A stretch of 64,000 nt of DNA from an uncultured Gemmatimonadales bacterium (GCA_963798845.1 CAWCUS010000002.1:768001-832000); one strand, 5' to 3'. Positions 11,291 to 29,664 are shown, numbered from the stretch's first letter. Made by a program: numbers and translations. Notes: generated by a model not told the origin, from the letters alone.

Positions 11291-11478
11291 GCGCTCTTGT
11301 CGAAACGGGAGCCCGCCATCCCGCGCGGGATTCCCTCGAACCAGGCCAGCCGCGAGGCGAGCGCCTGGGAGAGTCCCGGGCTGCATCGGAAGCGCCCTGT
11401 GACCGAGAGGCCGGAGGCGCGTCCGGGGTGCGAGGGCGCTGTTCCCCGGCCCGACGCCATTCGGGAGAGCGAGCGGAG

Positions 11479-13011
11479 ATGCAGCTTCCTATCTCAGCAT
11501 TCGTCGCCCTGGCGCTCGTTCTCGCCGGGTCCGTTCCTGCGCCCGCCGGGGCCCAGGTCCGGGACGATGCCGGGCGCTTCGCGTCTCCGTTTCTTCCCGT
11601 CCACCACTGGGCCTTGGACGCGCTGCGCCGCCTGGACGCGATGGGGGCCGCACCGCCGGGATACGACCCGGCAACCGGCGCGCTGACGAGAGGGGAGGCG
11701 GCCCTGGCGCTCGAATTCGCGGCCGAAGCCGGCCACGGGGCTGTTGCGGCCATCGCCGGACAGTACCTCGCCCGCTTCGCCGAAGAGTTCCCGGTCACGG
11801 TGAGTGCGCTGGAGCAGCAGCGGGCCGAAGGCGCGGCCCTCCTCGGGGGCAGCATGGCGGGAGGGGCGGGCTTGAGGGAGGGCGTGGTGTCCACGGGGAA
11901 GAACACCGCCAACGGCTGGTCGGGGGCCGCGCCGGTTCCGGACCGGGCGGACGGCCTAATGGACGTCGAGCTGGCGGCCGCGGTGTTCCCGCACATGTCC
12001 GTCTCACTGTCGCCGCGGTGGGCCGCCGGGTCGGCCGGGGTGGAGAGCGGCGATGTGCAGGCGAGGGTGGCGACGGTCGGGCTATGGGCGGGGCGGCGGG
12101 CGCCTGCGTACCGGGCCGGTCGTGGTGGGGGAATCGTGCTCTCCGGGGCGGCCGCATTCGACGGTGGCGGCATGTTCCTCGCGGAGCCGCTCCGTCTGCC
12201 ATGGGTGTTCGGCGCGCTGGGACCGGTCGGGTTCGAGACGACGCTCGCCCGCGCCGCTCGCAACGGCGACGTGGCACACCCGTGGTTCTGGACCGCCAGG
12301 GGCACGGTCCACCCGCATCCGCGGCTTTCCATCGGCGTCACCCGGGCGGCGCTGATGGGTGGAGAAGGGAACCCCCCGCTCACGCTGCGGGCGCTGGCGT
12401 ACATGCTGGTCGGGAAGCACGACGGCGTGGACAGCCGGGTCGAGGACCAGGTGGTCTCGGTGGATCTGCGCTACCGTCCTCCACTTCCGATCCCGCTCTC
12501 GGTCTATTTCGAGTGGGGAGCGGAGGACAGCGCCGGGGCATGGTGGCAGGTGCCCGGACGGGTGGTGGGCATGCTGCTCCCCGCCTGGCCGGGCGCAACC
12601 TGGCTGTCGGCGGGGATGGAGCGCGCGGCATTCGCGGGCCACTGCTGCAGCAACCCGCCGTGGTACCGACACGGCTCGTTCCCGGCCGGGTGGTCCGCAG
12701 GAGGTGCGCCTCTCGGGCATCCACTCGGCGGCGAAGGAACGGAGTGGCGAGCGTATGGGGACGCGGATCTCCTCGGCGCCCGGGTGCGCCTGTCGGGCGA
12801 CGCGTTCGTCCGACACCGGGGTCCGGAGAACCTGTACGCACCCGAGCGGGAAGGGGCGAGCCGGGGTGTCCGTGTCGACGTCGCCTGGCGGCCGTGGGGC
12901 GGCCTGGAGCTGAACGCCAACGCCGAAGGCGAGAAGGCCGACGATTGGTCTCGCGCCACCGCGGCGATCACCGCCCGCCTGTTCTTCCCGCGCGTCTCGT
13001 TCGAGCCGTAG
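11479..13011 (+). CDS. wzi: Capsule assembly Wzi family outer-membrane protein
   Basis: Signal peptide; FLPVHHWALDALRRL N-terminus, VYFEWGAEDSAG, WYRHGSFPAGW, PLGHPLGG; aromatic C-terminal strand. Confidence 0.72.
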   Translation: MQLPISAFVALALVLAGSVPAPAGAQVRDDAGRFASPFLPVHHWALDALRRLDAMGAAPPGYDPATGALTRGEAALALEFAAEAGHGAVAAIAGQYLARFAEEFPVTVSALEQQRAEGAALLGGSMAGGAGLREGVVSTGKNTANGWSGAAPVPDRADGLMDVELAAAVFPHMSVSLSPRWAAGSAGVESGDVQARVATVGLWAGRRAPAYRAGRGGGIVLSGAAAFDGGGMFLAEPLRLPWVFGALGPVGFETTLARAARNGDVAHPWFWTARGTVHPHPRLSIGVTRAALMGGEGNPPLTLRALAYMLVGKHDGVDSRVEDQVVSVDLRYRPPLPIPLSVYFEWGAEDSAGAWWQVPGRVVGMLLPAWPGATWLSAGMERAAFAGHCCSNPPWYRHGSFPAGWSAGGAPLGHPLGGEGTEWRAYGDADLLGARVRLSGDAFVRHRGPENLYAPEREGASRGVRVDVAWRPWGGLELNANAEGEKADDWSRATAAITARLFFPRVSFEP

Positions 13012-13042
13012 CGCCGGGTCCCGCAATCGATCGCGCACGCAC

Positions 13043-14509
13043 ATGAACACAGTACTGCGAATCAGGGAGACGGAGCGGCCTGGGCCGACAACGCCCCGGC
13101 TCGGCCGCGAGTTGCGGCGTCACCGGGACCTGCTGGGCCGGCGGCTCGGCAGCGATGTCCGGAGGCGAGCCGCCCGCGCCGGTCTGCTCCTTGGCGCGGA
13201 TGCCCTCGCGACCGCGCTCGGTGCGGCGCTCGTCGCCCGGGCCCTCGCGCCACCTTCCGGCACGGCGCTCGCCCCGCTCCCGTTGCTCGTCGCTCTCGTG
13301 CTGACCGGCCAGATCGCAGCGCGGACGTACGGTCCCATCCGTCGGGCGTGGAACCCCGAACGCGTGTGCGCGGGGCTCCTGCTCTCGTTCGCCATCCTCG
13401 TCGTGACCGGGTACGCCGAGCCCGACCTGCGACCCGCATGGACGCCCGCCCTGTTCCTCGGCGGCTTCCTCGCTGCCAGCCTGATCGCGGTCCGCTGGTC
13501 GCTCTCGCGCTTCGTGCGCGCGCTCTACCGCCGGGGGATCGGCGTGAAGAACGCGCTCGTCGTGGGTGCGCGCGAGGACGCCCGCGAGCTGGTGGAGCGC
13601 TTCCGCGCCGGGCGCACCGACGATGTCCGGGTGATCGGTCACCTGTCCGTCGACTCCGTGGCCGACCCGACCGCGATCGGCACCCTCTCGGAGCTGCGCG
13701 CGCTGATGGAGGCGCACGACGTGCGCAGCGTCATCGTGTCATCCCGGCTCCGGCCGGCGACGTTCCAGCAGCTCGTGGCCGAGTCCTTCGCCCACGGCGC
13801 CGCGGTCAGCATGGTCCCCTCCACCGTGACGGCGCTCCCGGCCCGGTTCGGGAGCCGGACCCTCTTCGGTTGGCCGGTGCTGGAGCTGCGTGTCCCCAGG
13901 CTCCACCTGGTCCAGCTGCTGTCGAAGCGGGTGCTCGACCTCGCCGGGTCGTTCGCCGCCCTCCTCCTCCTCGCCCCGTTCTGGATGGCGACGGCCCTGG
14001 CCGTCCGCCTCGAGGGTCGTCCCGTCCTGTTCCGGCAGACGCGCCTCGGCGTGGGGGGCCGGCCGTTCACGATCTACAAGTTCCGGAGCATGCGTCCGGA
14101 CGCGGAAGCGCTGCTCCGGGACGACGAGGTGCTGCACCGGAAGTACCTGGACAACGACTACAAGCTGCCCGCGGCGGAGGACCCGCGCATCTCGCGGCTC
14201 GGCCGCGTCATCCGGCGCACCAGCCTGGACGAGCTGCCTCAGCTCTTCAACGTCCTCAAGGGGGACATGTCGCTGGTCGGGCCCCGCCCCATCGTGCCGG
14301 ACGAGATCCGGGAATACGGCGAGGAGGCGCACACGTTCCTGGCGGTGAGGCCCGGGATCACCGGGTGGTGGCAGGTCAACGGTCGGAGCGAGGTCTGCTA
14401 CCCGGAGCGCGCCGAGCTGGACATGGCGTACGTGGACGGGTGGTCGGTCCTCCTGGACCTCAAGATCCTGGCGATGACGCTTCCGCGAATCCTGCGCGGC
14501 GCGCATTGA
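13043..14509 (+). CDS. Priming polyprenyl-phosphate glycosylphosphotransferase (WcaJ/WbaP-like)
   Basis: N-terminal TM helices, KRVLDL, FTIYKFRSM, RRTSLDELPQLFNVLKGDMSLVGPRP, RPGITGWWQV. Confidence 0.93.
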   Translation: MNTVLRIRETERPGPTTPRLGRELRRHRDLLGRRLGSDVRRRAARAGLLLGADALATALGAALVARALAPPSGTALAPLPLLVALVLTGQIAARTYGPIRRAWNPERVCAGLLLSFAILVVTGYAEPDLRPAWTPALFLGGFLAASLIAVRWSLSRFVRALYRRGIGVKNALVVGAREDARELVERFRAGRTDDVRVIGHLSVDSVADPTAIGTLSELRALMEAHDVRSVIVSSRLRPATFQQLVAESFAHGAAVSMVPSTVTALPARFGSRTLFGWPVLELRVPRLHLVQLLSKRVLDLAGSFAALLLLAPFWMATALAVRLEGRPVLFRQTRLGVGGRPFTIYKFRSMRPDAEALLRDDEVLHRKYLDNDYKLPAAEDPRISRLGRVIRRTSLDELPQLFNVLKGDMSLVGPRPIVPDEIREYGEEAHTFLAVRPGITGWWQVNGRSEVCYPERAELDMAYVDGWSVLLDLKILAMTLPRILRGAH

Positions 14510-14534
14510 GCGGGCCGGCAAGCACGCCAGGACG

Positions 14535-15539
14535 ATGACGGGAGACCCCTCGATGAGCGGAAGAAGGACCGCGCTGGTCTGTGGCGCCGGCGGCTTCGTA
14601 GGCGGCCACATGGTCCGCCGCCTCGAGGCCGAGGGGTACCGGGTCGTGGGCGTGGACATCAAGCAGCACGAGTTCATGGACACGGGCGCCGACCGGTTCG
14701 TGGTGGGCGACCTCCGCGACCCGCACCTGTGCCGCGCCGTGATCGATCGCCCCTTCGACGAGGTGTACCAGTTCGCCGCCGACATGGGCGGCGCCGGCTT
14801 CGTCTTCTCGGGCGAGCACGACGCCGACATCATGCACAACTCCGCGCTCATCAACCTCAATGTGATCGAGGCCGCGCACGTGGCCGGCGTGCGCAAGGTG
14901 TTCTACTCCTCCTCCGCGTGCATGTACCCGGAGCACGCGCAGACCGACACCGCCAACCCAGGCCTGAGCGAGGACATGGCGTACCCCGCCTCGCCGGACA
15001 GCGACTACGGCTGGGAGAAGCTGTTCAGCGAGCGGCTCTACCTGGCGTTCGCCCGCAACTACGGCATGGACGTGAGGATCGCACGCTTCCACAACGTCTT
15101 CGGACCGTACGGCTCCTGGGGCGACGGGCGCGAGAAGGCCCCCGCCGCCTTCTGCCGCAAGGTCGCCGAGACGCCCGACGGCGGCGAGATCGAGATGTGG
15201 GGTGACGGCGAGCAGACCCGCAGCTTCCTCTACATCGACGACTGCCTCGAAGGCGTCCGCCGCCTCGTCGCCTCCGACTTCGCCGCCCCCGTCAACATCG
15301 GCTCGGAAGAGATGGTCTCCATCAACCAGCTCGCCCGAATGGTCATGGAGATCGCCGGCAAGGAGCAGACGATCCGGCACGTCCCCGGCCCGCTCGGCGT
15401 CCGCGGCCGAAAATCAAACAACGACCTCGCGCGCGAGAAGCTGGGGTGGGAGCCGCGAGTCCGTCTCCGGGAAGGGCTGGAGCGGACGTACGCCTGGGTG
15501 GCGGCGCAGGTCACGGACACCCTCGTCGAGGCGGGCTGA
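14535..15539 (+). CDS. GDP-mannose 3,5-epimerase-like NAD-dependent epimerase
   Basis: GAGGFVG, FAADMGGAGF, YSSSACMYPE, YGWEK, GREKAPAAFCRK, WGDGEQTRSF, GPLGVRGR match the GME family. Confidence 0.85.
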   Translation: MTGDPSMSGRRTALVCGAGGFVGGHMVRRLEAEGYRVVGVDIKQHEFMDTGADRFVVGDLRDPHLCRAVIDRPFDEVYQFAADMGGAGFVFSGEHDADIMHNSALINLNVIEAAHVAGVRKVFYSSSACMYPEHAQTDTANPGLSEDMAYPASPDSDYGWEKLFSERLYLAFARNYGMDVRIARFHNVFGPYGSWGDGREKAPAAFCRKVAETPDGGEIEMWGDGEQTRSFLYIDDCLEGVRRLVASDFAAPVNIGSEEMVSINQLARMVMEIAGKEQTIRHVPGPLGVRGRKSNNDLAREKLGWEPRVRLREGLERTYAWVAAQVTDTLVEAG

Positions 15540-15543
15540 GCCC

Positions 15544-16779
15544 TTGAGGATCGTCGTCCACGACTACGCGGGGCACCCGTTCCAGGTCCAGCTCAGCCGC
15601 GAGCTGGCGGGACGCGGCCACCACGTGCTGCACCTGTACTCCGGCTCCACGCATACGCCCCGGGGACCGGTGGAGCCGCGCGACAGTGACCCGGCAGCGT
15701 TCTCCGTCGATGCGGTCACCCTGCCGGAGCAGGTGGCCAAGTACTCCTTCGTCCGGCGACGGCGCCAGGAGGTCGAGTACGGGAAACGCCTGGTGGCGCG
15801 CGTCCGCCGGTTCGAGCCGGACGTCGTGCTGTCCGCGAACACCCCCCTCGACGCGCAGGCGAGGCTCCAGCGCTTCTGCGCGGGGGAGGGGGTCCGCTTC
15901 GTCTTCTGGATGCAGGACGCGTTCGGGGAAGGCGTGACCAGGGTCCTCCGCCGCAGGCTGCCGGTCCTCGGCGAGCCCGTGGCGTGGCACTACAGGCGCC
16001 TGGAGCGACGGATCCTCTCGGCCAGCGACGCCATCGTCCTCATCACCGACGAATTCCGCGCCGCGATCCCTCCACGCGCCCGCACCGTCGCCACCGTGAT
16101 CCCGAACTGGGCGCCCCTCGACGACTTCCCCGTGCTCGGGAAGGACAACGACTGGGCCCGTGCCCACGGCCTCGACCGCACCACCAACCTCCTGTACGCG
16201 GGCACCCTCGGCCTGAAGCACAATCCGGAGATGCTGCTGCACTTGGCGCTGGCGGTGCGGGACGATCCGGACGTGCGCGTCGTCGTCGTGTCCGAAGGTC
16301 CGGCCGTGGACCAGCTCCGGCGGCGGGCGCGCGCCCACGGCCTCGACGGGATGCTGTTCCACGACTTCCAGCCGTTCGACCTCCTCCCCCAGGTTCTGGC
16401 CACGGGCGACGTCCTCCTCGCCCTGCTCGAGGCCGACGCGGGCGCCTACGCTGTGCCGTCGAAGGTGCTGACGTACCTGTGCGCGGGAAGGGCGGTGGTG
16501 GCGGCCCTTCCACCGGGGAACCAGGCATCCCGCACCGTCCGCGAGGCCGGAGCCGGCGTGGTCGTGGCCCCCGATGATGCGGAGGCGTTCGTGCGGGCGG
16601 CCGCGGCGCTGGCGGCCGACCCGGTGCGGCGGCGGGAAGCCGGCCTCAACGCTCGAGCGTTCGCCGAGCGACAGTTCGACATCGACCGGATCTGCAGCCG
16701 CTTCGAAGACCTCCTCTTACCCGCCATGGGGCCGGGGCGACGCGGGCTCGCCCGCCCGCGGATGCCGATCAGCGCATGA
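15544..16779 (+). CDS. Glycosyltransferase family 4 (WcaI/WbuB-like)
   Basis: VIPNWA, LYAGTLGLKHNP, VPSKVLTYLCAGRAVV; TTG start inferred. Confidence 0.85.
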   Translation: MRIVVHDYAGHPFQVQLSRELAGRGHHVLHLYSGSTHTPRGPVEPRDSDPAAFSVDAVTLPEQVAKYSFVRRRRQEVEYGKRLVARVRRFEPDVVLSANTPLDAQARLQRFCAGEGVRFVFWMQDAFGEGVTRVLRRRLPVLGEPVAWHYRRLERRILSASDAIVLITDEFRAAIPPRARTVATVIPNWAPLDDFPVLGKDNDWARAHGLDRTTNLLYAGTLGLKHNPEMLLHLALAVRDDPDVRVVVVSEGPAVDQLRRRARAHGLDGMLFHDFQPFDLLPQVLATGDVLLALLEADAGAYAVPSKVLTYLCAGRAVVAALPPGNQASRTVREAGAGVVVAPDDAEAFVRAAAALAADPVRRREAGLNARAFAERQFDIDRICSRFEDLLLPAMGPGRRGLARPRMPISA

Positions 16780-18158
16780 CGTTCGAGCGGGCGCGGCTCC
16801 GGATGAGGCTGGCCCAGAACCTGGGCGCCAACGTCTCCAACCAGATGGTCACGGTGGTGATCCAGCTCGTGGGAGTGCCCGTTCTCCTGAAGGCCTGGGG
16901 GGCCCAGCTCTACGGCGAGTGGCTCGTGCTGTTCGCGATCCCGGCCTACCTGTCCATGACGGACCTGGGCTTCTCCCAGTCCGCGGGCAACGATATGACG
17001 GCGCTCGCCGCGCGGCAGGAGCGGGACCGGGCGCTGGTGGTGTTCCAGAGCCTGTCGGCTCTGGTTTACGCCATTGCCACGGCCGGTCTGTGCTTCAGCG
17101 GTCTCCTGCTGATGCGCGTCCCCGTGGGGCGCTGGTTCGGCTTCGACCAGCTCGACGGGCGCTCTGCCAGCCTCGTGCTCTTCTTCCTGGCGGCGGAAGT
17201 CTTCGCGCGACTGCCCAACGGTGTCACCCACGCCGGATTCCGCGCGAGCGGAGAGAACGCCCTGCACGTCGCCCTCAGCAGCGGGGTAAGGCTGATGCAG
17301 TACCTGGCGATCTGGGTGGTCGCCCTCGGCGGGGGAGGCCCGGTCACAGCCGCTGCGGCCTTCCTGGGCGTTCGGCTCGCCGGAACGCCCGCCGCAGCGG
17401 TGGTCATGTTCCGGCGGCACCGCTGGCTCCGCTTCGGATTCGCGAAAGCCACGGGGGCGGAGCTGCGCCGGCTGTTCCGTCCGGCGCTGGCCAATGTGGC
17501 GATCCCGTTCGCACAGGCGTTGAACATCCAGGGAATGGTGGTGGTGATCGGCGCGATCCTGGGACCGATCGCGGTGGTCGTGTTCTCCACCCTCCGGACG
17601 CTCACCCGGGTCGTGTTCCAGCTGGTCCTGTCCATCTCCCAGGCGGCGGAGCCCGAGCTCGCCGCCGCGTGGGGCGAGCACGATCGGAAGCTGATGGGCC
17701 GGCTGTTCGTGCACGTGCTCCGGGCCGGCCTGTGGCTCGCCACGGCTTCCGCCGCCTTCCTGGCGCTGTTCGGGCCGGCGCTGCTGGCCATGTGGACGGA
17801 CCACCGCGTTGCCATGGACGGACGGCTCTTCGCGTGGCTCCTCCTGTCCGCTTCGGCCGGCGTCCTCTGGTACGCCGGGCTGACGGTGTTGAAGGCTGCC
17901 AACCACCACGTCCGCATGGCGTCGTTCTACGTTCTCGCATCGCTGGCGGGGCTCGGGCTCGCGGTCGCGTTCCTGGAGCTCGACGGCGCACTGGCCGACG
18001 CGGGGCTCGCGATGTTCGTCGCCGACGCCGCACTCGGGGTCTACGGCCTGTTCGCCGCGTCCCGCTTCCTCGAGCTCTCGGCCGGGGAGGCCATCCTGCG
18101 CTCACTGAACCCTCAGCCGCTCCTGCATGCGACGCGTCCACGATTCCGAAGGACCTGA
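16776..18158 (+). CDS. wzx: Wzx-like polysaccharide flippase
   Basis: Many hydrophobic TM segments; WGAQLYGEWLVL..IPAYLSMTDLGF; locus context. Confidence 0.75.
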   Translation: MTFERARLRMRLAQNLGANVSNQMVTVVIQLVGVPVLLKAWGAQLYGEWLVLFAIPAYLSMTDLGFSQSAGNDMTALAARQERDRALVVFQSLSALVYAIATAGLCFSGLLLMRVPVGRWFGFDQLDGRSASLVLFFLAAEVFARLPNGVTHAGFRASGENALHVALSSGVRLMQYLAIWVVALGGGGPVTAAAAFLGVRLAGTPAAAVVMFRRHRWLRFGFAKATGAELRRLFRPALANVAIPFAQALNIQGMVVVIGAILGPIAVVVFSTLRTLTRVVFQLVLSISQAAEPELAAAWGEHDRKLMGRLFVHVLRAGLWLATASAAFLALFGPALLAMWTDHRVAMDGRLFAWLLLSASAGVLWYAGLTVLKAANHHVRMASFYVLASLAGLGLAVAFLELDGALADAGLAMFVADAALGVYGLFAASRFLELSAGEAILRSLNPQPLLHATRPRFRRT

Positions 18159-18194
18159 TCGCTGCACCGCAGCGTGCAGCCTGGCCGGGTGGCC

Positions 18195-18989
18195 ATGGCG
18201 CTGGTAGACCACGTCTCCCGGCTCACCCGGCCGGTACGCGCGCGCGTGGCACTGCCGGTCGCCCATGCGCTACTGCGAACGCGCGCCTCGGATCGCTTCC
18301 TGGTGTCGTACCCGCGCTCCGGCAGCACGTGGGTACGGGCCATCCTCGCCGCGATCATCGATCCGGCGGCGGGGTTCGAGTTCGATGTCTTCAATCGCAT
18401 GATCCCAGGGGTGAGCGGACGGAGGCTGCCGCACATCGCCCGAATGCGGGGGCCGCGGCTGGTCCACTCGCATTGCGGGTACCGCCGTGACCTGCGGCGT
18501 GTGGCTTACCTCGTCCGCGATGGGCGGGACGTCGTGGTCAGCTACTACCACTACACCACCGCCCGGGAAGGCATCGACATGCCCTTCGAGACGTGGCTCG
18601 AACTCTATCTCCGGCGTGGCTACGGCGCCCGCTGGCACGACCACGTCGAGGGGTGGCTCACGAAGGGGCGGGAGAAGCTCGGCGCCGACATGCTGGTGGT
18701 GCGGTTCGAGGACCTGAGGGCCGGCACCGAGCCGAAGGTCCGGGAGATCGCGCGGTTCCTCGGCGTGCCGGCCGAGCCCGATGCCATCGGTCATGCCGTG
18801 CGGATGGCGGGCCTGGAGAAAGCGCGTCAGCGAGAGGATGCCGAGTCCGGCGGGACGCGACGGCGGAACGCGCGCTTCTACCGGAGCGGGGCGGTAGGAC
18901 AGTGGGAGGCGTATCGAGGCGGCGCCGCGTGGCGGACGTTCATGGAGGTGTCGCGGCGCGCGCTGTCTCTGGCCGGGTACGAGGAATAG
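18195..18989 (+). CDS. PAPS-dependent sulfotransferase
   Basis: 5'-PSB motif SYPRSGSTW, 3'-PB motif YLVRDGRDVVVSYYH, VRFEDL, FYRSGAVGQW. Confidence 0.9.
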   Translation: MALVDHVSRLTRPVRARVALPVAHALLRTRASDRFLVSYPRSGSTWVRAILAAIIDPAAGFEFDVFNRMIPGVSGRRLPHIARMRGPRLVHSHCGYRRDLRRVAYLVRDGRDVVVSYYHYTTAREGIDMPFETWLELYLRRGYGARWHDHVEGWLTKGREKLGADMLVVRFEDLRAGTEPKVREIARFLGVPAEPDAIGHAVRMAGLEKARQREDAESGGTRRRNARFYRSGAVGQWEAYRGGAAWRTFMEVSRRALSLAGYEE

Positions 18990-19002
18990 GCGAGGCGGCG
19001 GG

Positions 19003-20505: not shown

Positions 20506-20509
20506 GCGC

Positions 20510-21589
20510 ATGAGGGGGAGCCGGGTTCTCGTGTATCGGCTCGGGTCGCTCGGCGACACGATCGTGGCGCTGCCGGCGCTGCGGCTGGTCGCCCGGGCGT
20601 TCCCCGACGCCGAGCGGTGGGTCCTCACCAACCGCAGCGAAGGCGGCAAGGCCGCCGCCATCTCGGAGGTCGTGGGTGGAACCGGCCTGGTCCACGGCTT
20701 CCTCGACTACCCGCTCGCGACGCGCAGCGCGCGCGAGCTGCTGCGTCTGCGGAGGAGCATCCGACGGCTGCGTCCGCGCACGCTCGTCTACCTGGCGGAG
20801 CCCCGGGGACGGCTGGCCGCGCTCCGCGACGCCGCCTTCTTCAGGCTGTGCGGCATCCCGCGCATCGTGGGTCTGCCCGTCGGGCGGGAGCGTCAGCGCG
20901 TCCGCGCGCTCGATCCGAGCCTGTACGAACGCGAGGGGGCGAGGCTGGCGCGGTGCGTGTCGGCGCTTGGGGACGCCCGCTGGGACGACCCGGGCTCGTA
21001 CGACCTCGCCCTGTCCGGAGCCGAGCACGAGGCAGCCCGGCGCGCGCTGGGCCGGTTGCCAGAGGATGTTCCCGTGCTCGGCGTGAGCATCGGCGCCAAG
21101 GTGGACGTGAAGGACTGGGGGGACGCGAACTGGTCGGAGCTGCTCGGATCACTCTCGGCCAGGCTGCGCTGGGGACTGGTGGCGGTCGGCTCCGCCGACG
21201 AGCGGGAGAGGTGCGACCGGGTGCTCGCGAGCTGGGCGGGGCCTTCCCTCAACCTGTGCGGCACCCTGCCCGTCCGCGTGTCCGCCGCCGTCCTTTCGCG
21301 CTGCCGGCTGTTCATCGGGCACGACAGCGGGCCCATGCACATGGCCGCCGCCGTCGGCACCCCGGTCGTGGCGGTGTTCAGCTCCCGCAACCTGCCGGGG
21401 GAGTGGTTCCCCTACGGCGACGGCCACCGGGTGCTGTACCGGCCGATGCCATGCCAGGGGTGCGGCCTGGATCGATGCGTCGAGAGGCGGAAAGCGTGCA
21501 TCCGCGCCATCACCGTGGATGACGTGCGCGCCGCGGTCCTCGAGGAGATCGGCGAGGCGGCGTCCGCCAAGCGCGGCCGGGCCACCTGA
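20510..21589 (+). CDS. Glycosyltransferase family 9 (heptosyltransferase-like)
   Basis: LGSLGDTIVALP, KDW, FIGHDSGPMHMAAAVGTPVVAVF, Cys-rich C-terminus. Confidence 0.88.
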   Translation: MRGSRVLVYRLGSLGDTIVALPALRLVARAFPDAERWVLTNRSEGGKAAAISEVVGGTGLVHGFLDYPLATRSARELLRLRRSIRRLRPRTLVYLAEPRGRLAALRDAAFFRLCGIPRIVGLPVGRERQRVRALDPSLYEREGARLARCVSALGDARWDDPGSYDLALSGAEHEAARRALGRLPEDVPVLGVSIGAKVDVKDWGDANWSELLGSLSARLRWGLVAVGSADERERCDRVLASWAGPSLNLCGTLPVRVSAAVLSRCRLFIGHDSGPMHMAAAVGTPVVAVFSSRNLPGEWFPYGDGHRVLYRPMPCQGCGLDRCVERRKACIRAITVDDVRAAVLEEIGEAASAKRGRAT

Positions 21590-23355
21590 TGTGCGGCATC
21601 TCCGGGATCGTGAGCCGCGGGCGGGCCCCCGTGGACGGCGAGGCGCTCCTCCGGATGCGCGAGGCCATGCGCGTCCGGGGTCCGGATGGGGAGGGTGCGT
21701 GGATCCGCCCGGGCGGTGGGGTGGGGTTGGCTCATACCCGGCTCGCGGTGCTGGACCCTTCGGACCGGGGTGCCCAGCCGATGCGCTCCGCCGATGGTGT
21801 ATCCTGCGTCGTCTTCAACGGGGAGATCTACAACCACCCGGAGCTGCGCCAGTGGTGCGAGTCGCGAGGGACCCGCTACGTCAGCGGAAGCGACACCGAG
21901 ACCCTGCTCCACCTGTACGCGCTGGAAGGCCCCGATTTCGTGAAACGTTTGCGCGGGATGTTCGCGTTCGCCCTGTGGGACGAGCGCCGTTCAGCCCTCC
22001 TCCTCGCTCGTGATGCATTCGGCATCAAGCCGCTCTACTACTCTCTCGACGCGGGCGAGCTGCGGTTCGCATCGCAGGTCAAGGCCCTGGTGGCGGGAGG
22101 CGTGGATGGCACGGTCGACCCGGCGGGGCTCGCCTCGTTCCTCATCTGGGGCTACGTCACGGAGCCGTTCACGTGGCATCGCCGCATCAAGGCAGTCCCG
22201 GCGGGGTCGACGATCCTGGTGGACAGGTCGGGGAGGATTTCCCTCCGGAGGTATCACCGCCCGTCCGACGCCGTCCGTCGAGACCGCCAGTGCGAACCGC
22301 CGGCGCGGCCACTGCCCGAAGCGCTGCTGGACAGCGTCGAGCATCACCTCCTGTCGGACGTTCCCGTGGGTCTCTTCCTTTCCGCCGGCGTCGACTCGGG
22401 GACGCTGTGCGCGCTCACGCAGGAATGCGCGGACCCCGCTACCCTGCAATCGGTTACAGTGCGCTTCGCCGAGCACGCGGACACGAGCCAGGACGAGGGG
22501 GCCCGCGCGGGCGCCGTGGCCGCGCGGTACGGGTGCCCGCACGAGGTGGTCACGTTCGGGCGAGCGGACTTCGAGGCCGAGCGCGACCGCATCGTGGAGG
22601 CAATGGACCAGCCCACCGTCGACGGCATCAACACGTACTTCGTGAGCGCGGCGGCCGCGCGAGTCGGCCTGAAGGTCGCCCTGTCGGGCGTCGGCGCCGA
22701 CGAGGCGTTCGGGGGCTACGGCTCCTTCCGAGAGGTTCCGGGCCTCGCTCGGGCGACGCGAGCGGTGCCGCGCCGGCTCGGACGCGGTCTGCGGAAGGCC
22801 ATCGCGCCGCTGTCCGGGCGTCTGCCCTCCCCGAAGTACGCCGGTCTGCTCGAGTACGGAGGCACCGTGCCCGGAGCGTACCTGCTGCGTCGCGCGGTGT
22901 ACATGCCGTGGGAGCTGGGGCGCATCGTCGACCCCGACCTGGCGGCCGCCGGCCTGGCGGAGCTGGACCTGGGCCGCACCCTGGACGAAGTGGTCCAGGG
23001 GATCGACTCGCCGTACGAGCAGGTGATGGCGCTCGAGCAGGAGGTCTACCTGCGGAACTGCCTCTTGCGGGACACCGACTGGGCAGGGATGGCGCACTCG
23101 CTGGAGATCCGCACCCCGTTCGTGGACCGGGGCGTGTGGGACGCGGTGGTCTCCCTCAACCGTGCCCGTCCCGCCCCGCTCGGGAAGGGCGATCTCTTCC
23201 GGACGCCGCGCCTGCCGCTACCACCCGAGCAGCAGCGCCGGGCGAAGACCGGCTTCAACGTGCCGGTGATGGACTGGGTCGCTCCCGCGGCGCGAGCGCG
23301 GCGGGGCGACGGTCGTCGCCAGTGGGCCCTGGCGCTCCTGGGGGAGCTCGCGTGA
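21589..23355 (+). CDS. asnB: Asparagine synthase-like glutamine amidotransferase
   Basis: N-terminal MCGISG, RGPD, FNGEIYN, SDTE, FLSAGVDS, LSGVGADE, SLEIRTPF. Confidence 0.9.
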   Translation: MCGISGIVSRGRAPVDGEALLRMREAMRVRGPDGEGAWIRPGGGVGLAHTRLAVLDPSDRGAQPMRSADGVSCVVFNGEIYNHPELRQWCESRGTRYVSGSDTETLLHLYALEGPDFVKRLRGMFAFALWDERRSALLLARDAFGIKPLYYSLDAGELRFASQVKALVAGGVDGTVDPAGLASFLIWGYVTEPFTWHRRIKAVPAGSTILVDRSGRISLRRYHRPSDAVRRDRQCEPPARPLPEALLDSVEHHLLSDVPVGLFLSAGVDSGTLCALTQECADPATLQSVTVRFAEHADTSQDEGARAGAVAARYGCPHEVVTFGRADFEAERDRIVEAMDQPTVDGINTYFVSAAAARVGLKVALSGVGADEAFGGYGSFREVPGLARATRAVPRRLGRGLRKAIAPLSGRLPSPKYAGLLEYGGTVPGAYLLRRAVYMPWELGRIVDPDLAAAGLAELDLGRTLDEVVQGIDSPYEQVMALEQEVYLRNCLLRDTDWAGMAHSLEIRTPFVDRGVWDAVVSLNRARPAPLGKGDLFRTPRLPLPPEQQRRAKTGFNVPVMDWVAPAARARRGDGRRQWALALLGELA

Positions 23356-23410
23356 CGCAGCTACGTGCGGCGGCGCCAGCCAGGGGCGGCGTGCGCGTGG
23401 ACGGCGTGCG

Positions 23411-24370
23411 ATGAGTGGATCGCTCCGGAGCAGTCTGCTCCGCGTCCGGTACCACGTGCGGAAGCTCAGCTGGGTGGGCGCCGCCGCGTACATGGTGCCG
23501 AACGTCGTGAACGCGTTGCTTCCCGGGCGGTGGGGGGAGGACGTTCGCGCCGGACCCCCGAGGGGTCGCGTCGCACTCTGCCTTCGCTTCCGGGACGAAG
23601 CGCCGTTCCTCGGCGAGTGGCTCGAGTACCATCGCGCCGCCGGCGTCGACCACTTCTTCATGTATGACAACTTCAGCGAGGACGACTACGCCGGCGTCCT
23701 GGATCGCTTTCCGGAGCCCGAGCGCGTGACGCTCATCGGCTGGCCGTTCTCGCCCGCGTCCCCGGGGGCGGAGCACGACTGCATCGCGCGCGCTCGCGGC
23801 CGGTTCGAATGGGTCGGATTCCTCGATGCCGACGAGTTCGTCGTGGTGCGGGACGGGCGGTCCGTGCCGGAGTTCCTGGCCGGGTTCCCGGACGCGCCGG
23901 GCGTCGCGCTGCACTGGTACCAGTACGGGTCGGCGGGACACGAGCGCAGGCCGCCGGGGAGGGTGATCGAGGCGTACACGCGTCGGAGCCGAGAGCCGAA
24001 CAGGCATTTCAAGGTGTTCGTCCGACCCGAGCGCGTCACGAGAAACCGCAACTCGCACAACTTCTACTATCGCGGGGCGGCGTGCGCGGTGCGCGAGGAC
24101 GGGAGCCGCGCGTTCGGGAGCATGGCGGCCCGGCCGGTCGCCCGGGAAGCGTGGATCAACCACTATCACTACAAGAGTCTCGAGGACTACCTGGAGAAGG
24201 CGGCCCGGTCCTCGACGCTCGATCGCTCGGGCATGGCGGAGCCCTCGCGACGGGTCGAGCTGGCGCAGAGCGCCATGACCGTGGCCAACGAAGTGGAGGA
24301 CCTGAGCGCCGTCCGCTATCTCGAGAGCCGGAAGCGCGCGCGCGGCCGGGTCAGCGGGAGTCGCCGATGA
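23411..24370 (+). CDS. Glycosyltransferase family 92 / DUF23-like (GT-A fold)
   Basis: RDEAPFLGEWLEYH..AGVDHFFMYDN.S.D, WVGFLDADEF (DxD), INHYHYKS. Confidence 0.8.
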   Translation: MSGSLRSSLLRVRYHVRKLSWVGAAAYMVPNVVNALLPGRWGEDVRAGPPRGRVALCLRFRDEAPFLGEWLEYHRAAGVDHFFMYDNFSEDDYAGVLDRFPEPERVTLIGWPFSPASPGAEHDCIARARGRFEWVGFLDADEFVVVRDGRSVPEFLAGFPDAPGVALHWYQYGSAGHERRPPGRVIEAYTRRSREPNRHFKVFVRPERVTRNRNSHNFYYRGAACAVREDGSRAFGSMAARPVAREAWINHYHYKSLEDYLEKAARSSTLDRSGMAEPSRRVELAQSAMTVANEVEDLSAVRYLESRKRARGRVSGSRR

Positions 24371-25629
24371 GGATCCTGCACGTCCAGGAGAGCCTGTCGC
24401 CCCGCTATGGCGGGCCGTCGCAGGTGCTCACTGGTCTCGCCCGGGCCCAGGAGCGCGCCGGGCACAGCGTCGTCATCGCCACCACCAACGCCGACTATCC
24501 CAGGGGCGTATACCGGGCGAGCGGCTGGGACACGCTCCCCGGGTCGCGCGTGGGCGTGCTCTACGGGGGCGTCGTTTTCCGTCCGCTCAAGGTATCGCGG
24601 TCGCTGGGGGTGTTCCTCGAGCGTGAGACCCGGGGCTTCGACCTCGTGCACATCCACGGCCTCTACAGGTTTCCTCCCACGTACGCGGCCTACCAGGCGC
24701 GCAGGCACGGGGTTCCCTACATCGTGCGGCCCCACGGCTCGCTCGATCCGTTCCTGTACCAGCGGAGCTCCCTGAGCCTCGTGCTCAAGCGCCTCCACGA
24801 GCGGCTGTTCGACCTGCCTGACCTCAAGGGCGCGGCCGCCATCCACTTCACGGCGGAAGCCGAGAGGGAGAAGGCTGCACTGGTCCCCGCCACCACTCCT
24901 TCCTTCGTGGTGCCGAACGGAGTGGAATGGGACCGCTTCGCCGAGCTGCCCGAGCGCGGCCGCCTGCGTGCGCGATGGCAGCTCGGCGAAGCCCCCGTGG
25001 TTCTGTTTCTCGGCCGTTTGCACCCGAAGAAGGGGCTGGAGATCCTGATCGATGCGTTCTCCAGGGTGCGGGGGGAAGGCAGCCGTGCCCAGCTCGTGAT
25101 CGCCGGCCCCGACAACGACGGACACGGCCGCGACGTGATCGAGTGGGTCCGTGCCCGGGAGCTCCAGGGCAGCGTGCGTTTCGTGGGCCCACTCGATGGC
25201 GAGGACGTGGTGCAGGCGTACGTCGACGCCGACGTCTTCGCGCTGCCGTCCCATACCGAGAATTTCGGCATGACGGTGGTGGAAGCCATGGCGTGCCGGC
25301 TTCCTGTCGTGGTTTCCGGCCACGTGGACATCCACCCCGCCATCCGAAGCGCAGGCGCGGGGCTGGTGGTCGGCGGCGCCCCGGAGCTGGCACACGCGCT
25401 CGACTCCCTCCTCGACGACGACGGAAGGAGGAGCCGGATGGGTGAAGCGGGGCGCGCCCTCGTTCGAGAGCGCTACACCTGGAGCGCCGTGGTCGGGGAG
25501 CTGGACGCCGCGTACGAAGCGGCGGTGGACCGGCACCGGCGCGGGCGCGGGCCGGTCGCTCCCGAGGCGCCGCACGGGTCCGCGGGTCGGACGACGCGGC
25601 AAGCGACGCCCACGGCCCCGCGCCCATAG
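24367..25629 (+). CDS. Glycosyltransferase family 4
   Basis: YGGP, PHGSL, FLGRLHPKKG, LPSHTENFGMTVVEAMAC. Confidence 0.9.
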   Translation: MRILHVQESLSPRYGGPSQVLTGLARAQERAGHSVVIATTNADYPRGVYRASGWDTLPGSRVGVLYGGVVFRPLKVSRSLGVFLERETRGFDLVHIHGLYRFPPTYAAYQARRHGVPYIVRPHGSLDPFLYQRSSLSLVLKRLHERLFDLPDLKGAAAIHFTAEAEREKAALVPATTPSFVVPNGVEWDRFAELPERGRLRARWQLGEAPVVLFLGRLHPKKGLEILIDAFSRVRGEGSRAQLVIAGPDNDGHGRDVIEWVRARELQGSVRFVGPLDGEDVVQAYVDADVFALPSHTENFGMTVVEAMACRLPVVVSGHVDIHPAIRSAGAGLVVGGAPELAHALDSLLDDDGRRSRMGEAGRALVRERYTWSAVVGELDAAYEAAVDRHRRGRGPVAPEAPHGSAGRTTRQATPTAPRP

Positions 25630-25633
25630 CGCC

Positions 25634-26368
25634 ATGGCCACCCGCCTGCTGACGAAGGGACGCAAGGCCGTGCGCGTCCTGGTCACTGCGCCGTGGCGGC
25701 GCGCCCTCCTGCGCCACCGCGTGGCCGCGGCCGTCGAGCACTTCCCGATCCTCCGACGGCTGGGGGAGCTGCGGACGGTGGTGGACATCGGCGCGAACCG
25801 GGGCCAGTTCGCACTCGTGGCGCGGCGCGTGTGGCCGGATGCGCGGATCGTGTCGTTCGAGCCGCTGTCCGGCGCCGCTTCCGTGTTCAGGGTCGTGTTC
25901 CGCGGCGACGCGCGGACGCGCATCGAGGACGCGGCGATCGCGCCACGGTCGGGCGCGGGCACCCTCCACGTCTCACGCCGCGACGACTCCTCGTCGCTCC
26001 TCCCGATCGGGCGCGCTCAGCGCGAGTTGTTCCCGGGCACCGACGAGATCCGCACCGTGGGCGTGCGCGTGGCTCCCCTCGGCGAGTACCTGGATGCCGC
26101 CATGGAGACGCCCGCCCTCCTCAAGCTCGACGTGCAGGGCTACGAGCTGGAGGCGCTGCGGGGGTGCGAGGACCTGCTGGACCGCTTCCAGTGGGTGTAC
26201 GTGGAGTGCTCGTACGTGGAGCTGTACGAGGGGCAGGCGCTGGCCGGAGAGGTGGAGGAGTGGCTCGTCGCCCGCGGCTACGTCCCGCGGGGCATCCACA
26301 ACCCGATCCGGGATCGGAGCGGCCGCCTCATCCAGGCGGACTTCCTGTTCGACAGGACGGAAGGCTGA
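25634..26368 (+). CDS. FkbM family methyltransferase
   Basis: VDIGANRGQF, SFEP, LLKLDVQGYELEAL, LYEGQ, QADFLF. Confidence 0.9.
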   Translation: MATRLLTKGRKAVRVLVTAPWRRALLRHRVAAAVEHFPILRRLGELRTVVDIGANRGQFALVARRVWPDARIVSFEPLSGAASVFRVVFRGDARTRIEDAAIAPRSGAGTLHVSRRDDSSSLLPIGRAQRELFPGTDEIRTVGVRVAPLGEYLDAAMETPALLKLDVQGYELEALRGCEDLLDRFQWVYVECSYVELYEGQALAGEVEEWLVARGYVPRGIHNPIRDRSGRLIQADFLFDRTEG

Positions 26369-26437
26369 CGGCGGCGGATCGGCGAGCCACCGTCCGGGCG
26401 CGCGCGAGGGCGGGCGCGAGGGCGACATCGCCCGGCG

Positions 26438-28871
26438 TCACACCCGGACCTTCTCGCCTTCCTCCTCCTGCCCGCCGTAGTAGTGCTGGTAGGCGTAGCC
26501 GTAGGAGCCGTACCCGCCGTAGTACTTGGCGTCGCGCCGGTAGTCGACGTCGTTGAGCACGGAGCCGAGCAGCGTCGCGCGCACGTTCCGGATCTGCTCG
26601 CTGGCGAAGCTGAGCGCCTGCTTCGGCGTGACGGAGGCGCGGGCGACGAGGACCACGCCATCGGTGTTGGTGCCCAGGACCGCGGCGTCGGTGACGAGGT
26701 TGAGGGGCGGCGAATCGAGGATGACGGCGTCGTAGCGCTCCGTGAGCGCAGCCAGGAGCGTGCGCATGTTCGTCGATCCCAGCAGCTCGGCGGGGTTCGG
26801 AGGGATGGTCCCGGAGCTCAGCAGGTCGATGGCGCCGCTGTCTCCGAGGTCCACGGTCCGGGCCGCTTGCTCCGCGGACACCGCCCCGAGCAGGACGTTT
26901 GAAAGGCCGGGCTCCCGCGGCAGGCCGAACACGGCGCTGAGCACGCCGCGTCGCAGGTCCGCGTCGACGAGAAGCACGCTGCGGCCCTGCTGCGCCAGCG
27001 TGATGGCGAAGTTGGCCGCGCTCGTCGACTTGCCTTCGCCCGGCGTCGGGCTGCTGAACACCAGCGTCCGGGGCGCGTGGTCCGGCCGCAGGAACGTGAT
27101 GTTCGTGCGCAGCGACCGGTACGCCTCCGAGACGGGGTTGCTGGGATCGTGTCCGGTGACGAGCCGCTGCTCCAGCCCCGTCGCCGCGACACCGGGCGTG
27201 CGCGTCCGGCCCCCGTTGCGGCGCATCCGGCTGTGCACGCCGTCCCAGCGGATGGTGGGGATGATCCCGAGAACGGGCGCGCCCGTGGCCTCCGCGACGT
27301 CCTCGCGCGTATGCACCGTGGTGTCGGAGTACTCCCGGATGAAGGCGACTCCGACGCCGACGATCCCACCGAGAACGAGCGCCAGCGCCACGTTCAGCAT
27401 CCCGCGCGGCTTGATGGGCTCCTGCGGCCGGATGGCCGGATCCACCACCCGGACGCTCGGGTCCTCCACGGCCTCGGCGATCTCCGCCTCCTTCAGCCGC
27501 GTCTGGAGGAGCGTGTAGATCTGCTCGAGCACCGACGTCTGCCGCTTGAGACGCGCGAACTGGACCTCCTTGGCCGGGATCTGCTCGAGCTGGGTTCCGA
27601 AACGGGCGAGCGTGGCGTCCAGCGACCGCACCTGGTTGGTCACACCCTCGAGGTACGTGGACGCGATCGCCCGGAGCTGGACTTCCAGGTCATGGATCCG
27701 CCCCGTCAGCGTGAGCACGTCCGGGTGCTTCGTGTTGAAGCGCTTCGTCAGCTCGGCGCGCGCGTTCTCGGCCTCGTTGAGTGACCGCAGCAGCTCGGTC
27801 GTCGCCTGGTTGCGCAGCAGCGACGGGAACGCGATCAGACGCCGGTAGGGCGCGGGGTCTTCCGGGTTCGCCGCCGTCGCCGTGCGGATCTCGTCCATGA
27901 GGGTCTGGAGGGCCGCGCGCTCGGCATTCGAGCTCGTCCCGCTGGCCCTGCATCTCGGCCAGGCGCTGGACCTGCGCGCTGGCCTCGTCTTCCAGCGACA
28001 CCACCTGCTGCCGCTCGCGGAAATCGCGGAGTGCATCCTCCGCGCCCGCGAGCTGGACCGAGAGCTGGCCGATCTGGTCGCGCAGGAACGCCACGGTGCT
28101 GCGCGTCTCGGTCTTCTGGACCTGGTTGCGGCGCGCGATGAACGTGCGGGCGAGGGCGTTGGGGACGTCGCGGGCGAGCCCGCGGTCGGAGCTCTGATAG
28201 TGGACTTCAACCACGTTCGCGTCCTGGTTCGGCCGCGTCACGGTGAGCGCGTCTCGCAGCCCGGCGACCGTGGCCTCGAACGACCGGACGGCGAAGCGGA
28301 CCTCGTCCTCGTCCGCGGCTCCGGGGGCGAGCACCACCTCCGCCGCATCCAGCGGAATCCGCTCGCCGACGGCGTACGTGCCCACGTCCTCGCCGGTGGT
28401 GGTGTTCCGGACGACGAAGCGGCCGTCATCCCTCTTCCGGGCCTCGTACTCCGCGTCCTCCTCGGTCTTCAGCGGCGCGCGTGTGGCGCTCACCATGCTC
28501 AGGACCCGCTCGCGCGGCGTACGCATGGGCGCTTGCAGGACCACGCGCAGGCCGAGGGAGTCCGCCACATCCTCGGCCACGACGCGGCTGCGGAGCACCT
28601 CCATCTCCGTTTCGACCTGGCTCCCGCGGGCGATGGAGCTGAGGATGTCGAGCATGGCCACCTGGGACTGCTCCTCCTCGTCGATCCGGATCGAAGTGGA
28701 AGCCTCGTAGATGGGCGTGGCGAGGAGCGTGTACGCCACGCCAAGAACGCCCGCGAGCGCGATGCACCCTGCGATGATCCAGCGATTGCGGCGCAGGATG
28801 TTCCAGATCTCGCGCAGCTCGATCTCGTCGTCGGGCCGGCCGTTGCCGGGAGCCGTGGGTCGGGAGTCCAT
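26438..28871 (-). CDS. wzc: Wzc-like polysaccharide co-polymerase / tyrosine autokinase (one +1 frameshift near 27928)
   Basis: Wzz N-terminus (EIELREIWNILRRNRW) in ORF 27690..28871; second frame carries SEAYRSLRTNI, GEGKST Walker A, DADLR, PPNPAELL and a Tyr-rich tail. Confidence 0.9.
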
Positions 28872-28873
28872 GG

Positions 28874-29548
28874 TCAGTGCGAGATGATGAGCGCGATCAC
28901 CAGGCTGACGCTGCCGGTGATGGCGGCGGCCACGATGTTCGAGTTGCGGGCGAGCCAGCTGCGCTCCGGCACGTAGAACTGGTCGCCGGAGCGGACGGGG
29001 AGCTCGGCGATCCGGGTGCGGCGGCTCAGCGTCGCCGTCAGGACCTCGCCGTCCCGCAGCAGCTGCACCCTGTCCGGGTTGCCCGCGGGCGTGGCGCCGC
29101 CGGCCATCGCGATGGCGTCCGCCACGGTCATGGTCGGGTCCACGCGGTACAGCCCCGGCCGCGCGACCGAGCCGAGCACGTTCACGCGCCGGAGCAGTGT
29201 GACGTCGACGGCCGGATCCCGGAGGTACTCGCCGTAGCCGGACACCAGCTGCTCCTTGAGCGCCGCCGGCGACAACTCCGTCACCCGCATCGCGCCCAGG
29301 AGCGGGAACACCGCCGTCCCCGTCTCATCCACCTGGTACTCCCCCGACAGGTCGGGCTCGCGCCAGATCCTGAGCTGCACCACGTCGCCCGGCCGCAGCA
29401 GCTGGTCGGCCGCCGTGGTGTCCATGGCCGGCGAGGCAGACGACGCTCCGGGCTCGGCGCTGTCCGGTGTCGCCTGTGCGGACGCGCGCGGAGGCGCCCA
29501 CACGAGCGGGAGGAGGACGGTGACGAGCAGCGGGAGCCGAAAGTTCAT
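28874..29548 (-). CDS. wza: Wza-like polysaccharide export protein (Poly_export + SLBB)
   Basis: Signal peptide, LRPGDVVQL, VDETG..FPLLG, VLGSVARPG.Y, SGDQFYVP. Confidence 0.85.
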   Translation of the reverse strand: MNFRLPLLVTVLLPLVWAPPRASAQATPDSAEPGASSASPAMDTTAADQLLRPGDVVQLRIWREPDLSGEYQVDETGTAVFPLLGAMRVTELSPAALKEQLVSGYGEYLRDPAVDVTLLRRVNVLGSVARPGLYRVDPTMTVADAIAMAGGATPAGNPDRVQLLRDGEVLTATLSRRTRIAELPVRSGDQFYVPERSWLARNSNIVAAAITGSVSLVIALIISH

Positions 29549-29635
29549 CTGCCAGCTGGTGTGTACAGCGGTGACGCCGCGCGATTGCCCGGTCCTGGTG
29601 CGGGGCGCTGGATCGGCCCCGGGGGCCGAGCGGAA

Positions 29636-29664
29636 ACAATAGCGCGGAGTGGGGGAGGGTACAA
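29636..29664 (-). promoter_or_regulatory. Putative sigma70 promoter for wza-wzc
   Basis: Minus strand TTGTAC-N17-TATTGT. Confidence 0.55.

Follow-up and report, generated by a model that had tools for sequence, protein, structure and literature searches.

A capsule-type polysaccharide locus with a GDP-mannose 3,5-epimerase orthologue and a sulfotransferase in an uncultured Gemmatimonadales bacterium

This study describes a polysaccharide locus at positions 11479-29548 of a 64,000-nucleotide stretch of DNA from an uncultured Gemmatimonadales bacterium (GCA_963798845.1, CAWCUS010000002.1:768001-832000; "the window" hereafter means this whole stretch). Its genes suggest, and we consider it rather probable, that the locus specifies a Wzx/Wzy-dependent heteropolysaccharide exported by Wza, Wzc and Wzi in the manner of group 1 capsules and carrying sulfate, methyl and probable amide groups together with an L-hexose derived from the action of a GDP-mannose 3,5-epimerase (GME). 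The most useful new lead is the pair formed by the GME gene and the adjoining GT4 glycosyltransferase gene, called GT4a here.

Twelve uninterrupted genes on the + strand (11479-26368), with spacings of -4 to 55 nt, formed a tight operon on which a wza-wzc pair converged from the - strand (26438-29548). The original prediction had presented the interval as a single Wzx/Wzy operon. All of the components that it named were present; the interval itself consisted of two convergent transcription units, and its end coordinate, 29548, was the start of wza. The "Wzx/Wzy" label was likewise retained in part: Pfam showed neither protein, language-model neighbours pointed to a Wzx-like one, and Wzy was proposed only as a candidate. 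A scan of 10800-30700 revealed no promoter-like site and six terminator-like sites, against 4.3 +/- 2.5 in shuffled sequences. Raw lists of open reading frames (ORFs) were full of false frames because the G+C content of the window is 71%; coding frames were chosen by third-position GC, and gene starts were then refined. Gene families were assigned with Pfam and NCBIfam profiles, with the following outcome.

11479-13011, + strand: Wzi-like outer-membrane capsule assembly protein with a signal-like N-terminus, gene 1 of the operon (PF14052, 129.8 bits; ATG at 11479)
13043-14509, + strand: priming polyprenyl-phosphate hexose-1-phosphate transferase of the WbaP/WcaJ type, with hydrophobic segments (PF02397, 214 bits; TIGR03025, 349.6 bits, above its cut-off of 295.55)
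14535-15539, + strand: GME orthologue, an epimerase classed as a short-chain dehydrogenase/reductase (SDR) (similarity to PDB 2c59)
15544-16779, + strand: GT4a, WcaI-like GT4 glycosyltransferase (Pfam GT4 domains; TTG start)
16776-18158, + strand: Wzx-like flippase of the MOP superfamily, 460 aa (ESM Atlas neighbours; weak MatE match)
18195-18989, + strand: predicted cytoplasmic sulfotransferase of the 3'-phosphoadenosine 5'-phosphosulfate (PAPS) type, 264 aa (PF00685/Sulfotransfer_1, 103.5 bits; cut-off 22)
19003-20505, + strand: polytopic membrane protein of 500 aa without family, candidate Wzy (about 10 hydrophobic helices)
20510-21589, + strand: GT9 (heptosyltransferase-family) glycosyltransferase (PF01075, 83.9 bits)
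21589-23355, + strand: AsnB-like glutamine amidotransferase (PF00733 and PF13537; TIGR01536, 361 bits, cut-off 267)
23411-24370, + strand: GT92/GT2_4-like glycosyltransferase (PF01697, 80.2 bits, cut-off 23; PF13704, 62.2 bits)
24367-25629, + strand: GT4b, HpsP-like GT4 glycosyltransferase whose ATG overlaps the GT92 stop (PF00534, 118 bits; NF038295 HpsP, 232 bits, under its cut-off of 550)
25634-26368, + strand: FkbM-family S-adenosylmethionine methyltransferase, last gene of the operon (PF05050, 69.5 bits; TIGR01444, 82.6 bits)
26438-28871, - strand: Wzc, PCP-2a co-polymerase and tyrosine autokinase, in two overlapping ORFs (Wzz, GNVR and kinase domains)
28874-29548, - strand: short Wza-type outer-membrane polysaccharide export protein with a signal peptide and a C-terminal hydrophobic helix (PF02563, PF10531)

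The epimerase and its transferase partner

The window epimerase matched Arabidopsis GME (AtGME, PDB 2c59) with an E-value of 4.6e-103 (348 bits, residues 14-327), the next-best structure that is not a GME reaching 1e-29 (107 bits). The likeness to the plant enzyme (AtGM35E, PDB 2c59/2c54, EC 5.1.3.18) extended over the full length and included the NAD-binding glycine motif (GAGGF at residue 17), the Ser/Tyr/Lys set (S127, Y158 and K162, all present) and the Cys/Lys pair; motifs SSAC, YGWEK and REKAPAA were found at residues 126, 158 and 199, respectively. Residues S127, C129, Y158, K162 and K201 were invariant in 108 of 108 sequences when the window protein was aligned with 107 GME-like sequences from fetched loci. 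The equivalents of C129 and K201 were missing in all four SDR paralogues of the same genome, used as outgroups. These two residues align with the GME-specific acid-base pair of AtGME, which we take to be Cys145 and Lys217 in the plant numbering. The GME-like identity with catalytic Cys, Tyr/Lys and Lys that had been proposed for 14535-15539 thus held, both in the match to 2c59 and in the comparison with GMEs and other SDRs. By its sequence, the window epimerase is a true GME orthologue; it reached no NCBIfam equivalog cut-off, the best model being Fcl (126 bits against 500).

Bacterial GMEs are widespread, not rare. A pattern-limited scan with one genome per species returned 297 stretches with relatives, the best 80 of which were used below as GME loci; these 80 displayed 63-72% identity and were distributed over many phyla. 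In the GME tree, the closest neighbours of the window protein came from unrelated phyla. Occurrence in the organism's own family was patchy (8 of 36 other genomes searched), and GME was found neither in a genome of the same genus nor in 24 genomes from two sister families.

One characterised bacterial GME is described in the sources consulted, MfGM35E of Methylacidiphilum fumariolicum, with an adjoining glycosyltransferase gene, a methyltransferase gene close by and a role in lipopolysaccharide (LPS) hypothesised by its authors (PMC6678494, PMC8787198). The window GME likewise has a glycosyltransferase gene beside it and a methyltransferase gene nearby; it differs in that its operon is of the Wza/Wzc/Wzi capsule type and includes a sulfotransferase gene, the role proposed for MfGM35E being in LPS. 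GDP-mannose for GME can come from the genome itself, to judge by a ManC-like gene (C1:165397-166425) whose match to TIGR01479 scores 243 bits over the guanylyltransferase part.

The GT4a start follows the GME stop at a distance of 4 nt; this translationally coupled gene most likely encodes the enzyme that would add the GME product. GT4a relatives (37-54% identity) were encoded at 80 metagenomic loci, 32 of which contained a GME-like gene (at least 45% identity); so did 14 of the 26 loci having at least 1.1 kb on both sides. The two genes of a pair were on the same strand in 31 of 32 cases, gaps ranged from 3 to 594 nt, and both gene orders were encountered (19 and 13). In nine of the 80 loci, FkbM relatives (41-58% identity) were situated no more than a few kb from those of GT4a; six of these nine had no GME in the DNA examined.

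Characterised eukaryotic GT92 enzymes use UDP-D-galactose, and the original prediction had tied the GT92-like protein to L-galactose. This association was not supported: no GT92-like relative appeared in the 80 GME loci or the 80 GT4a loci at an E-value of 1e-8. A PDB sequence search with the protein returned no relative. It is GT4a, rather than the GT92-like protein, that is the transferase linked to GME.

Inclusion of GT4a in the WcaI family was considered and rejected, its scores being under the curated cut-offs (56.5 bits against 800 for TIGR04007 wcaI); only a resemblance is left. L-fucose is 6-deoxy-L-galactose, and the role of WcaI as a fucosyltransferase later received biochemical support. 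It had been proposed as the fucose transferase since its gene lies among the fucose-synthesis genes in the colanic acid cluster, according to a review (PMC4443731).

Sulfotransferase and sulfate activation

The PAPS sulfotransferase of the original prediction was confirmed, with PAPS-binding loops and catalytic His intact. Residues P40, R41, S42, G43, T45 and W46 of the 5'-phosphosulfate loop were invariant or nearly so in 54 relatives, as were His93 and the 3'-phosphate block (R108, D109, R111, D112 and S116). The loop, P40-R41-S42-G43-x-T45, displays Arg in place of the Lys of animal SULTs. The best PDB match was a cytosolic SULT (E 1.6e-17); relatives did not exceed 55% identity and were all unnamed metagenomic or automatically named sequences. 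A search for a hydrophobic segment found none in this protein, so the enzyme should act in the cytoplasm, the site of PAPS.

About 12 kb from the polysaccharide locus, the window also carries the genes for making this donor:

41195-46044, - strand: sulfate activation operon, with a CysQ-like 3'-phosphoadenosine 5'-phosphate phosphatase, CysC adenosine 5'-phosphosulfate kinase, a DASS/CitMHS anion transporter and Sat

Sat, the ATP sulfurylase (NF003166, 551.6 bits, cut-off 387), and CysC (NF003013, 310 bits, cut-off 163) passed their NCBIfam thresholds; the CysQ-like phosphatase stayed under its own (TIGR01331, 179 bits, cut-off 228.8), and the transporter matched PF03600/PF00939. The predicted functions indicate that the genome can supply PAPS. 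Seven sulfotransferase-like matches were recorded in the whole genome, six of them above the Pfam cut-off. Two of the seven belong to a second polysaccharide region and are situated about 20 kb upstream of the window. The organism appears to sulfate glycans habitually.

The original prediction had also raised the co-occurrence of GME, sulfotransferase and GT92 genes. The first two recurred, with sulfotransferase-like ORFs within 10 kb of GME in four of the 80 GME loci (L038, L039, L051 and L057, by phmmer; 42 of the 80 are at least 15 kb long); a GT92-like relative was present in none of the 80. Locus L038, from a Nitrospirae metagenome-assembled genome (MAG), contained FkbM, GT4, two Pfam-confirmed sulfotransferases, CysQ, CysC, Wzx and GME, as well as an acetyltransferase, an oxidoreductase, DegT and GT2. 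Locus L057, from an Acidobacteriota MAG, contained a partial sulfotransferase, recognised solely by HMM and phmmer, a Sat-CysC fusion, CysQ and GME, along with a Wzy_C protein, GH5, GT4 and WecG. Both resemble the window locus in having GME less than 10 kb from sulfotransferase genes and from CysC/CysQ or a Sat-CysC fusion within polysaccharide clusters, and L038 further shares FkbM and Wzx; they differ in their glycosyltransferase sets and have no relative of the 500-aa protein. The L039 ORF had a phmmer match and no NCBIfam match. A clade-specific sulfotransferase HMM matched L057 and L051 only among the 80 loci; it was too narrow, since it missed the two Pfam-confirmed sulfotransferases of L038, which for the same reason do not belong to the window's clade.

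Other gene associations were encountered on the way. In L051, an AsnB relative and two sulfotransferase-like ORFs occur near GME, and an AsnB paralogue of the organism itself (29% identity) directly adjoins two more sulfotransferase-like ORFs at G000:C6:1092366-1095804; there may be an association between AsnB-like and sulfotransferase genes. A relative of the 500-aa protein (P0130) and one of the sulfotransferase (P0004) both came from a contig of 10666 bases, and these two genes may travel together as well.

Assembly, export and the predicted product

The 460-aa protein had no Pfam match at an E-value of 0.01, MatE appearing only at 0.13. It contains multiple hydrophobic segments and was read as Wzx because its best language-model neighbours in the ESM Atlas (score 0.99) all belonged to Polysacc_synt/MatE clusters (PF01943/PF13440/MatE). 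The 500-aa protein belongs to a well-conserved nameless family: neither it nor its 83 relatives (44-62% identity) matched a Pfam family. About 10 hydrophobic helices and a 140-residue loop were predicted, and an AlphaFold (AF2) model built from 42 sequences reached a pLDDT of 87.5. Foldseek comparison of this model with the PDB gave no match at an E-value of 0.001 or better, WaaL being at rank 2 with a probability of 0.44; the longest structural alignments were with the SEDS proteins FtsW (Z 7.8, 226 aa) and RodA (Z 7.5, 246 aa), Z-scores in the chance range for helical proteins. Atlas leads to O-antigen polymerase families concerned just 11-21% of cluster members. The locus requires a polymerase and has no other membrane protein left to assign, which is why the 500-aa protein is proposed as candidate Wzy. 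Searches of 300 further genomes from the organism's phylum, of the four genomes that contain L038, L039, L051 and L057, and of 401 genomes from the phylum to which L057 belongs did not find it.

Two sets of precursor genes on the left side of the window bear on the composition of the product:

1191-2525, + strand: UDP-glucose 6-dehydrogenase (Pfam; TIGR03026, 441.5 bits, cut-off 189.8)
6315-9891, + strand: rmlD-rmlB-rmlA-rmlC, dTDP-L-rhamnose supply, directly upstream of the locus (Pfam)

The former can supply a uronic acid for the AsnB-like amidotransferase; among named sequences, the best match of this neighbouring dehydrogenase was in a Gemmatimonadales MAG (L027, 66%).

In the scheme proposed here, we infer every substrate, the order of the steps and the product. 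The priming transferase would load a hexose-1-phosphate onto undecaprenyl phosphate, after which four cytoplasmic glycosyltransferases (GT4a, GT9, the GT92-like enzyme and GT4b) would assemble a repeat unit of at most five sugars. One of these would be L-galactose or L-gulose, made from GDP-mannose via GME and most likely added by GT4a. On the cytoplasmic face, the lipid-linked unit would be O-sulfated by the PAPS sulfotransferase and O-methylated by the FkbM enzyme, and the AsnB-like enzyme would probably amidate a uronic acid. Wzx would flip the unit, the 500-aa membrane protein would polymerise it, and Wzc, Wza and Wzi would export and anchor the polymer. Neither the sulfation site nor the choice between L-galactose and L-gulose is readable from the sequence.

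A sulfated, methylated and possibly amidated capsule or exopolysaccharide (EPS) with an L-hexose, as first proposed, remains a reasonable prediction given the orthology of GME, the conserved sulfotransferase residues and the presence of genes for GDP-mannose, PAPS and uronic acid supply. The description of its chemistry as "algal-galactan-like" was dropped: a priming transferase, four glycosyltransferases and the adjoining rmlDBAC genes suggest a repeat unit of mixed composition, with at most five sugars, rather than a galactan.

Several observations weigh against the proposed polymer and against the role given to GT4a in it. The donor of every transferase here is a guess. GT4a scored under the cut-off of the WcaI family NF007640 (121.7 bits against 276), and a PDB sequence search with it returned no solved relative. 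GME also has other partners, given that a GT4a-type one (39-47% identity) stood beside it in only six of the 80 GME loci. In 42 of the 80 GT4a loci, most of them with short flanks, the available DNA included no GME and no FkbM relative, and in one of the GT4a loci (L154) no GME was found within 6 kb on either side. The joint presence of GME and sulfotransferase genes in four of 80 loci is a recurrence, not a demonstrated enrichment, and may reflect the fact that both are common in polysaccharide loci. Wzy was assigned by elimination and from structural scores within the chance range for helical bundles. Finally, a +1 frame break near 27925-27929 divides Wzc, leaving the Wzz domain in one ORF (27690-28871) and the GNVR and kinase domains in the other (26438-28210).

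This last point would be explained if the frameshift were genuine and the locus decaying or silent, so that no polymer is exported. The Wzc relatives in G021 and G032 do have both halves in one frame, and the contigs of three public sequencing runs do not span the break. Yet removal of one base at the CATTC word at 27925-27929 restores a single stop-free Wzc frame of 810 aa, and all 12 operon genes and wza are uninterrupted. Moreover, the essential, single-copy secA gene next door (30606-33948, + strand) is itself broken into at least three ORFs by at least five frame changes in the assembly. The public-run contigs, one of which, from run X1, is otherwise identical to the window, are without single bases at 31484, 31512, 31754/31755, 32300, 32335 and 32718, which means that extra bases were wrongly inserted in the assembly. 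No CATC word is obviously common to these secA sites. An assembly error probably underlies the Wzc frameshift as well, and we regard a silent locus as very unlikely.

An LPS O-antigen locus, with the same chemistry and a polymer ligated to lipid A-core, is unlikely too. Wzx/Wzy clusters beside rml genes are classic O-antigen loci, and rmlDBAC lies directly upstream of this operon. The operon includes a gene of the GT9 heptosyltransferase family, though its product scored under the cut-off of every NCBIfam heptosyltransferase model. An LPS role was also proposed for the characterised bacterial GME in the sources mentioned above (PMC6678494, PMC8787198). Against this, Wzi, Wza and the tyrosine-kinase Wzc make up the export set of group 1-type capsules and EPS, and no WaaL-type ligase domain was found by Pfam in the operon. 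The presence of Wzi, Wza and a kinase-bearing Wzc led us to prefer a capsule or EPS to an O-antigen.

Alternatively, the cluster could be real and the sulfate or the GME product go elsewhere, to a lipid, a small molecule, another glycan or another pathway. Among solved structures, the sulfotransferase comes closest to small-molecule cytosolic SULTs and to the glycopeptide enzymes Teg12, Teg14 and StaL; the seven sulfotransferase-like matches are spread over several loci, so PAPS use is not specific to this one; and GME products also enter antibiotics, according to the available text of a review (PMC8787198). On the other hand, both genes are enclosed in a 12-gene operon with overlapping or nearly abutting frames, GME is coupled to a glycosyltransferase whose family accompanies it across loci, and Pfam scans of the window revealed no natural-product genes (PKS, NRPS or similar). 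We consider this diversion rather unlikely and retain the sulfated, GME-dependent capsule or EPS.

Genomic surroundings, known systems and significance

The locus displays the pattern of a serotype-determining locus. The same-genus genome kept the left flank, comprising rmlDBAC, a lipoprotein gene and wzi, at 67-86% nucleotide identity (67% for wzi, 76-86% for rmlD-rmlB-rmlA-rmlC). It also kept the right flank, with a CAP-domain gene, secA and the genes for the CysQ-like protein, CysC and the transporter; the latter three were the queries for the sulfate operon, Sat not being among them. The inner block differed: Wza and Wzc were just 30-37% identical, and no relative of GME, the sulfotransferase, AsnB, GT92 or FkbM was found in that block of the same-genus genome. 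It is this combination of kept flanks and a different inner block that makes the locus serotype-like.

Just upstream of the window, the second polysaccharide region (G000:C2:723600-768000; L107, L108 and L109) contains two more Wzi paralogues, a 921-aa Wza-like protein with five SLBB domains and two sulfotransferases, together with an ABC transporter, GT61, GT2 and GT4 genes, DegT aminotransferases and two Bac_transf genes. Some of its genes were split, with a UDP-glucose dehydrogenase-like gene in two ORFs and truncated Bac_transf and GT4 genes, probably as a result of the same assembly problem. Two SDR genes in this region (L109:5892-7976) were examined as Gmd and Fcl and rejected by NCBIfam, being generic GalE/RmlB-like. 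Another Wza-like protein, of 947 aa (35940-38783, - strand; Poly_export and five SLBB domains), lies between radC and relA/spoT, apart from any obvious cluster. The lipoprotein gene at 10019-10924 is flanked by words (at about 9885-9925 and 10955-11007) that match many sites of the same-genus genome with 79-100% identity and look like a dispersed REP-like repeat. Elsewhere in the window, three large ORFs with a strong coding signal had no Pfam family (48902-50731, 51631-53124 and 53051-54199, all - strand), and a 465-aa ORF (56703-58100, + strand) combined TsaE and TsaD/TsaB-type domains in an apparent t6A-pathway fusion, followed by a GNAT acetyltransferase.

Among known systems, the xss cluster for synechan in Synechocystis PCC 6803 is a genetically characterised sulfated Wzx/Wzy exopolysaccharide cluster (PMC8205485). 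As far as the available part of that source goes, it comprises two sulfotransferases, eight glycosyltransferases, its own regulators and a PCP, without GME among the genes listed; synechan contains Rha, Man, Gal, Glc and sulfate in a ratio of 1:1:1:5:2, and its authors were aware of no further gene cluster for a bacterial extracellular polysaccharide that includes sulfotransferases. A putative sulfated polysaccharide cluster is also described in Pontiella, in the portion of the report consulted (PMC7356697). The window locus shares with xss a probable Wzx/Wzy type, in-cluster sulfotransferase genes, several glycosyltransferases and a PCP; unlike xss, it has one sulfotransferase, four glycosyltransferases, GME, AsnB-like and FkbM genes and its own Wza/Wzc/Wzi set, in a non-cyanobacterial host. 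With the colanic acid and group 1 capsule systems of E. coli (WcaJ, WcaI, Wzx, Wzy, Wza-Wzb-Wzc and Wzi) it would share the principle of assembly and export as well as a branch for a GDP-L-hexose, with GME in place of Gmd/Fcl, a GT4a under the WcaI cut-off, and predicted sulfation, methylation and amidation in addition. The tailoring combination is unusual, not unprecedented, sulfated Wzx/Wzy clusters being known in cyanobacteria.

Sulfated polysaccharides are sought as biomaterials. The pathways worked out for bacterial ones are mainly cyanobacterial, to judge from the portion of the synechan account consulted (PMC8205485), and in the excerpts of the literature searched, no bacterial glycan genetically tied to GME was found. 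The value of the window locus is limited by the fact that the organism is known here solely from an assembly with consensus errors. It nevertheless provides a compact, complete and testable gene set for GME-linked glycans and bacterial sulfation. GME-GT4a gives a concrete candidate L-galactosyl or L-gulosyl transferase, and such enzymes are listed as a need for L-sugar glycoside synthesis in the available text of a review on GM35E (PMC8787198).

A wider proposal, which we put forward tentatively and hold to be doubtful, is that GT4a represents an unrecognised family of bacterial GDP-L-galactose/GDP-L-gulose glycosyltransferases moving with GME across phyla. The residue that it adds would here be sulfated and/or O-methylated, and the pairing of GME with sulfation genes (as in L038 and L057) would be one convergent solution rather than chance. 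If this were true, L-galactose residues bearing sulfate and methyl groups, a kind otherwise known from the galactans of red algae, would be produced by a non-cyanobacterial bacterium.

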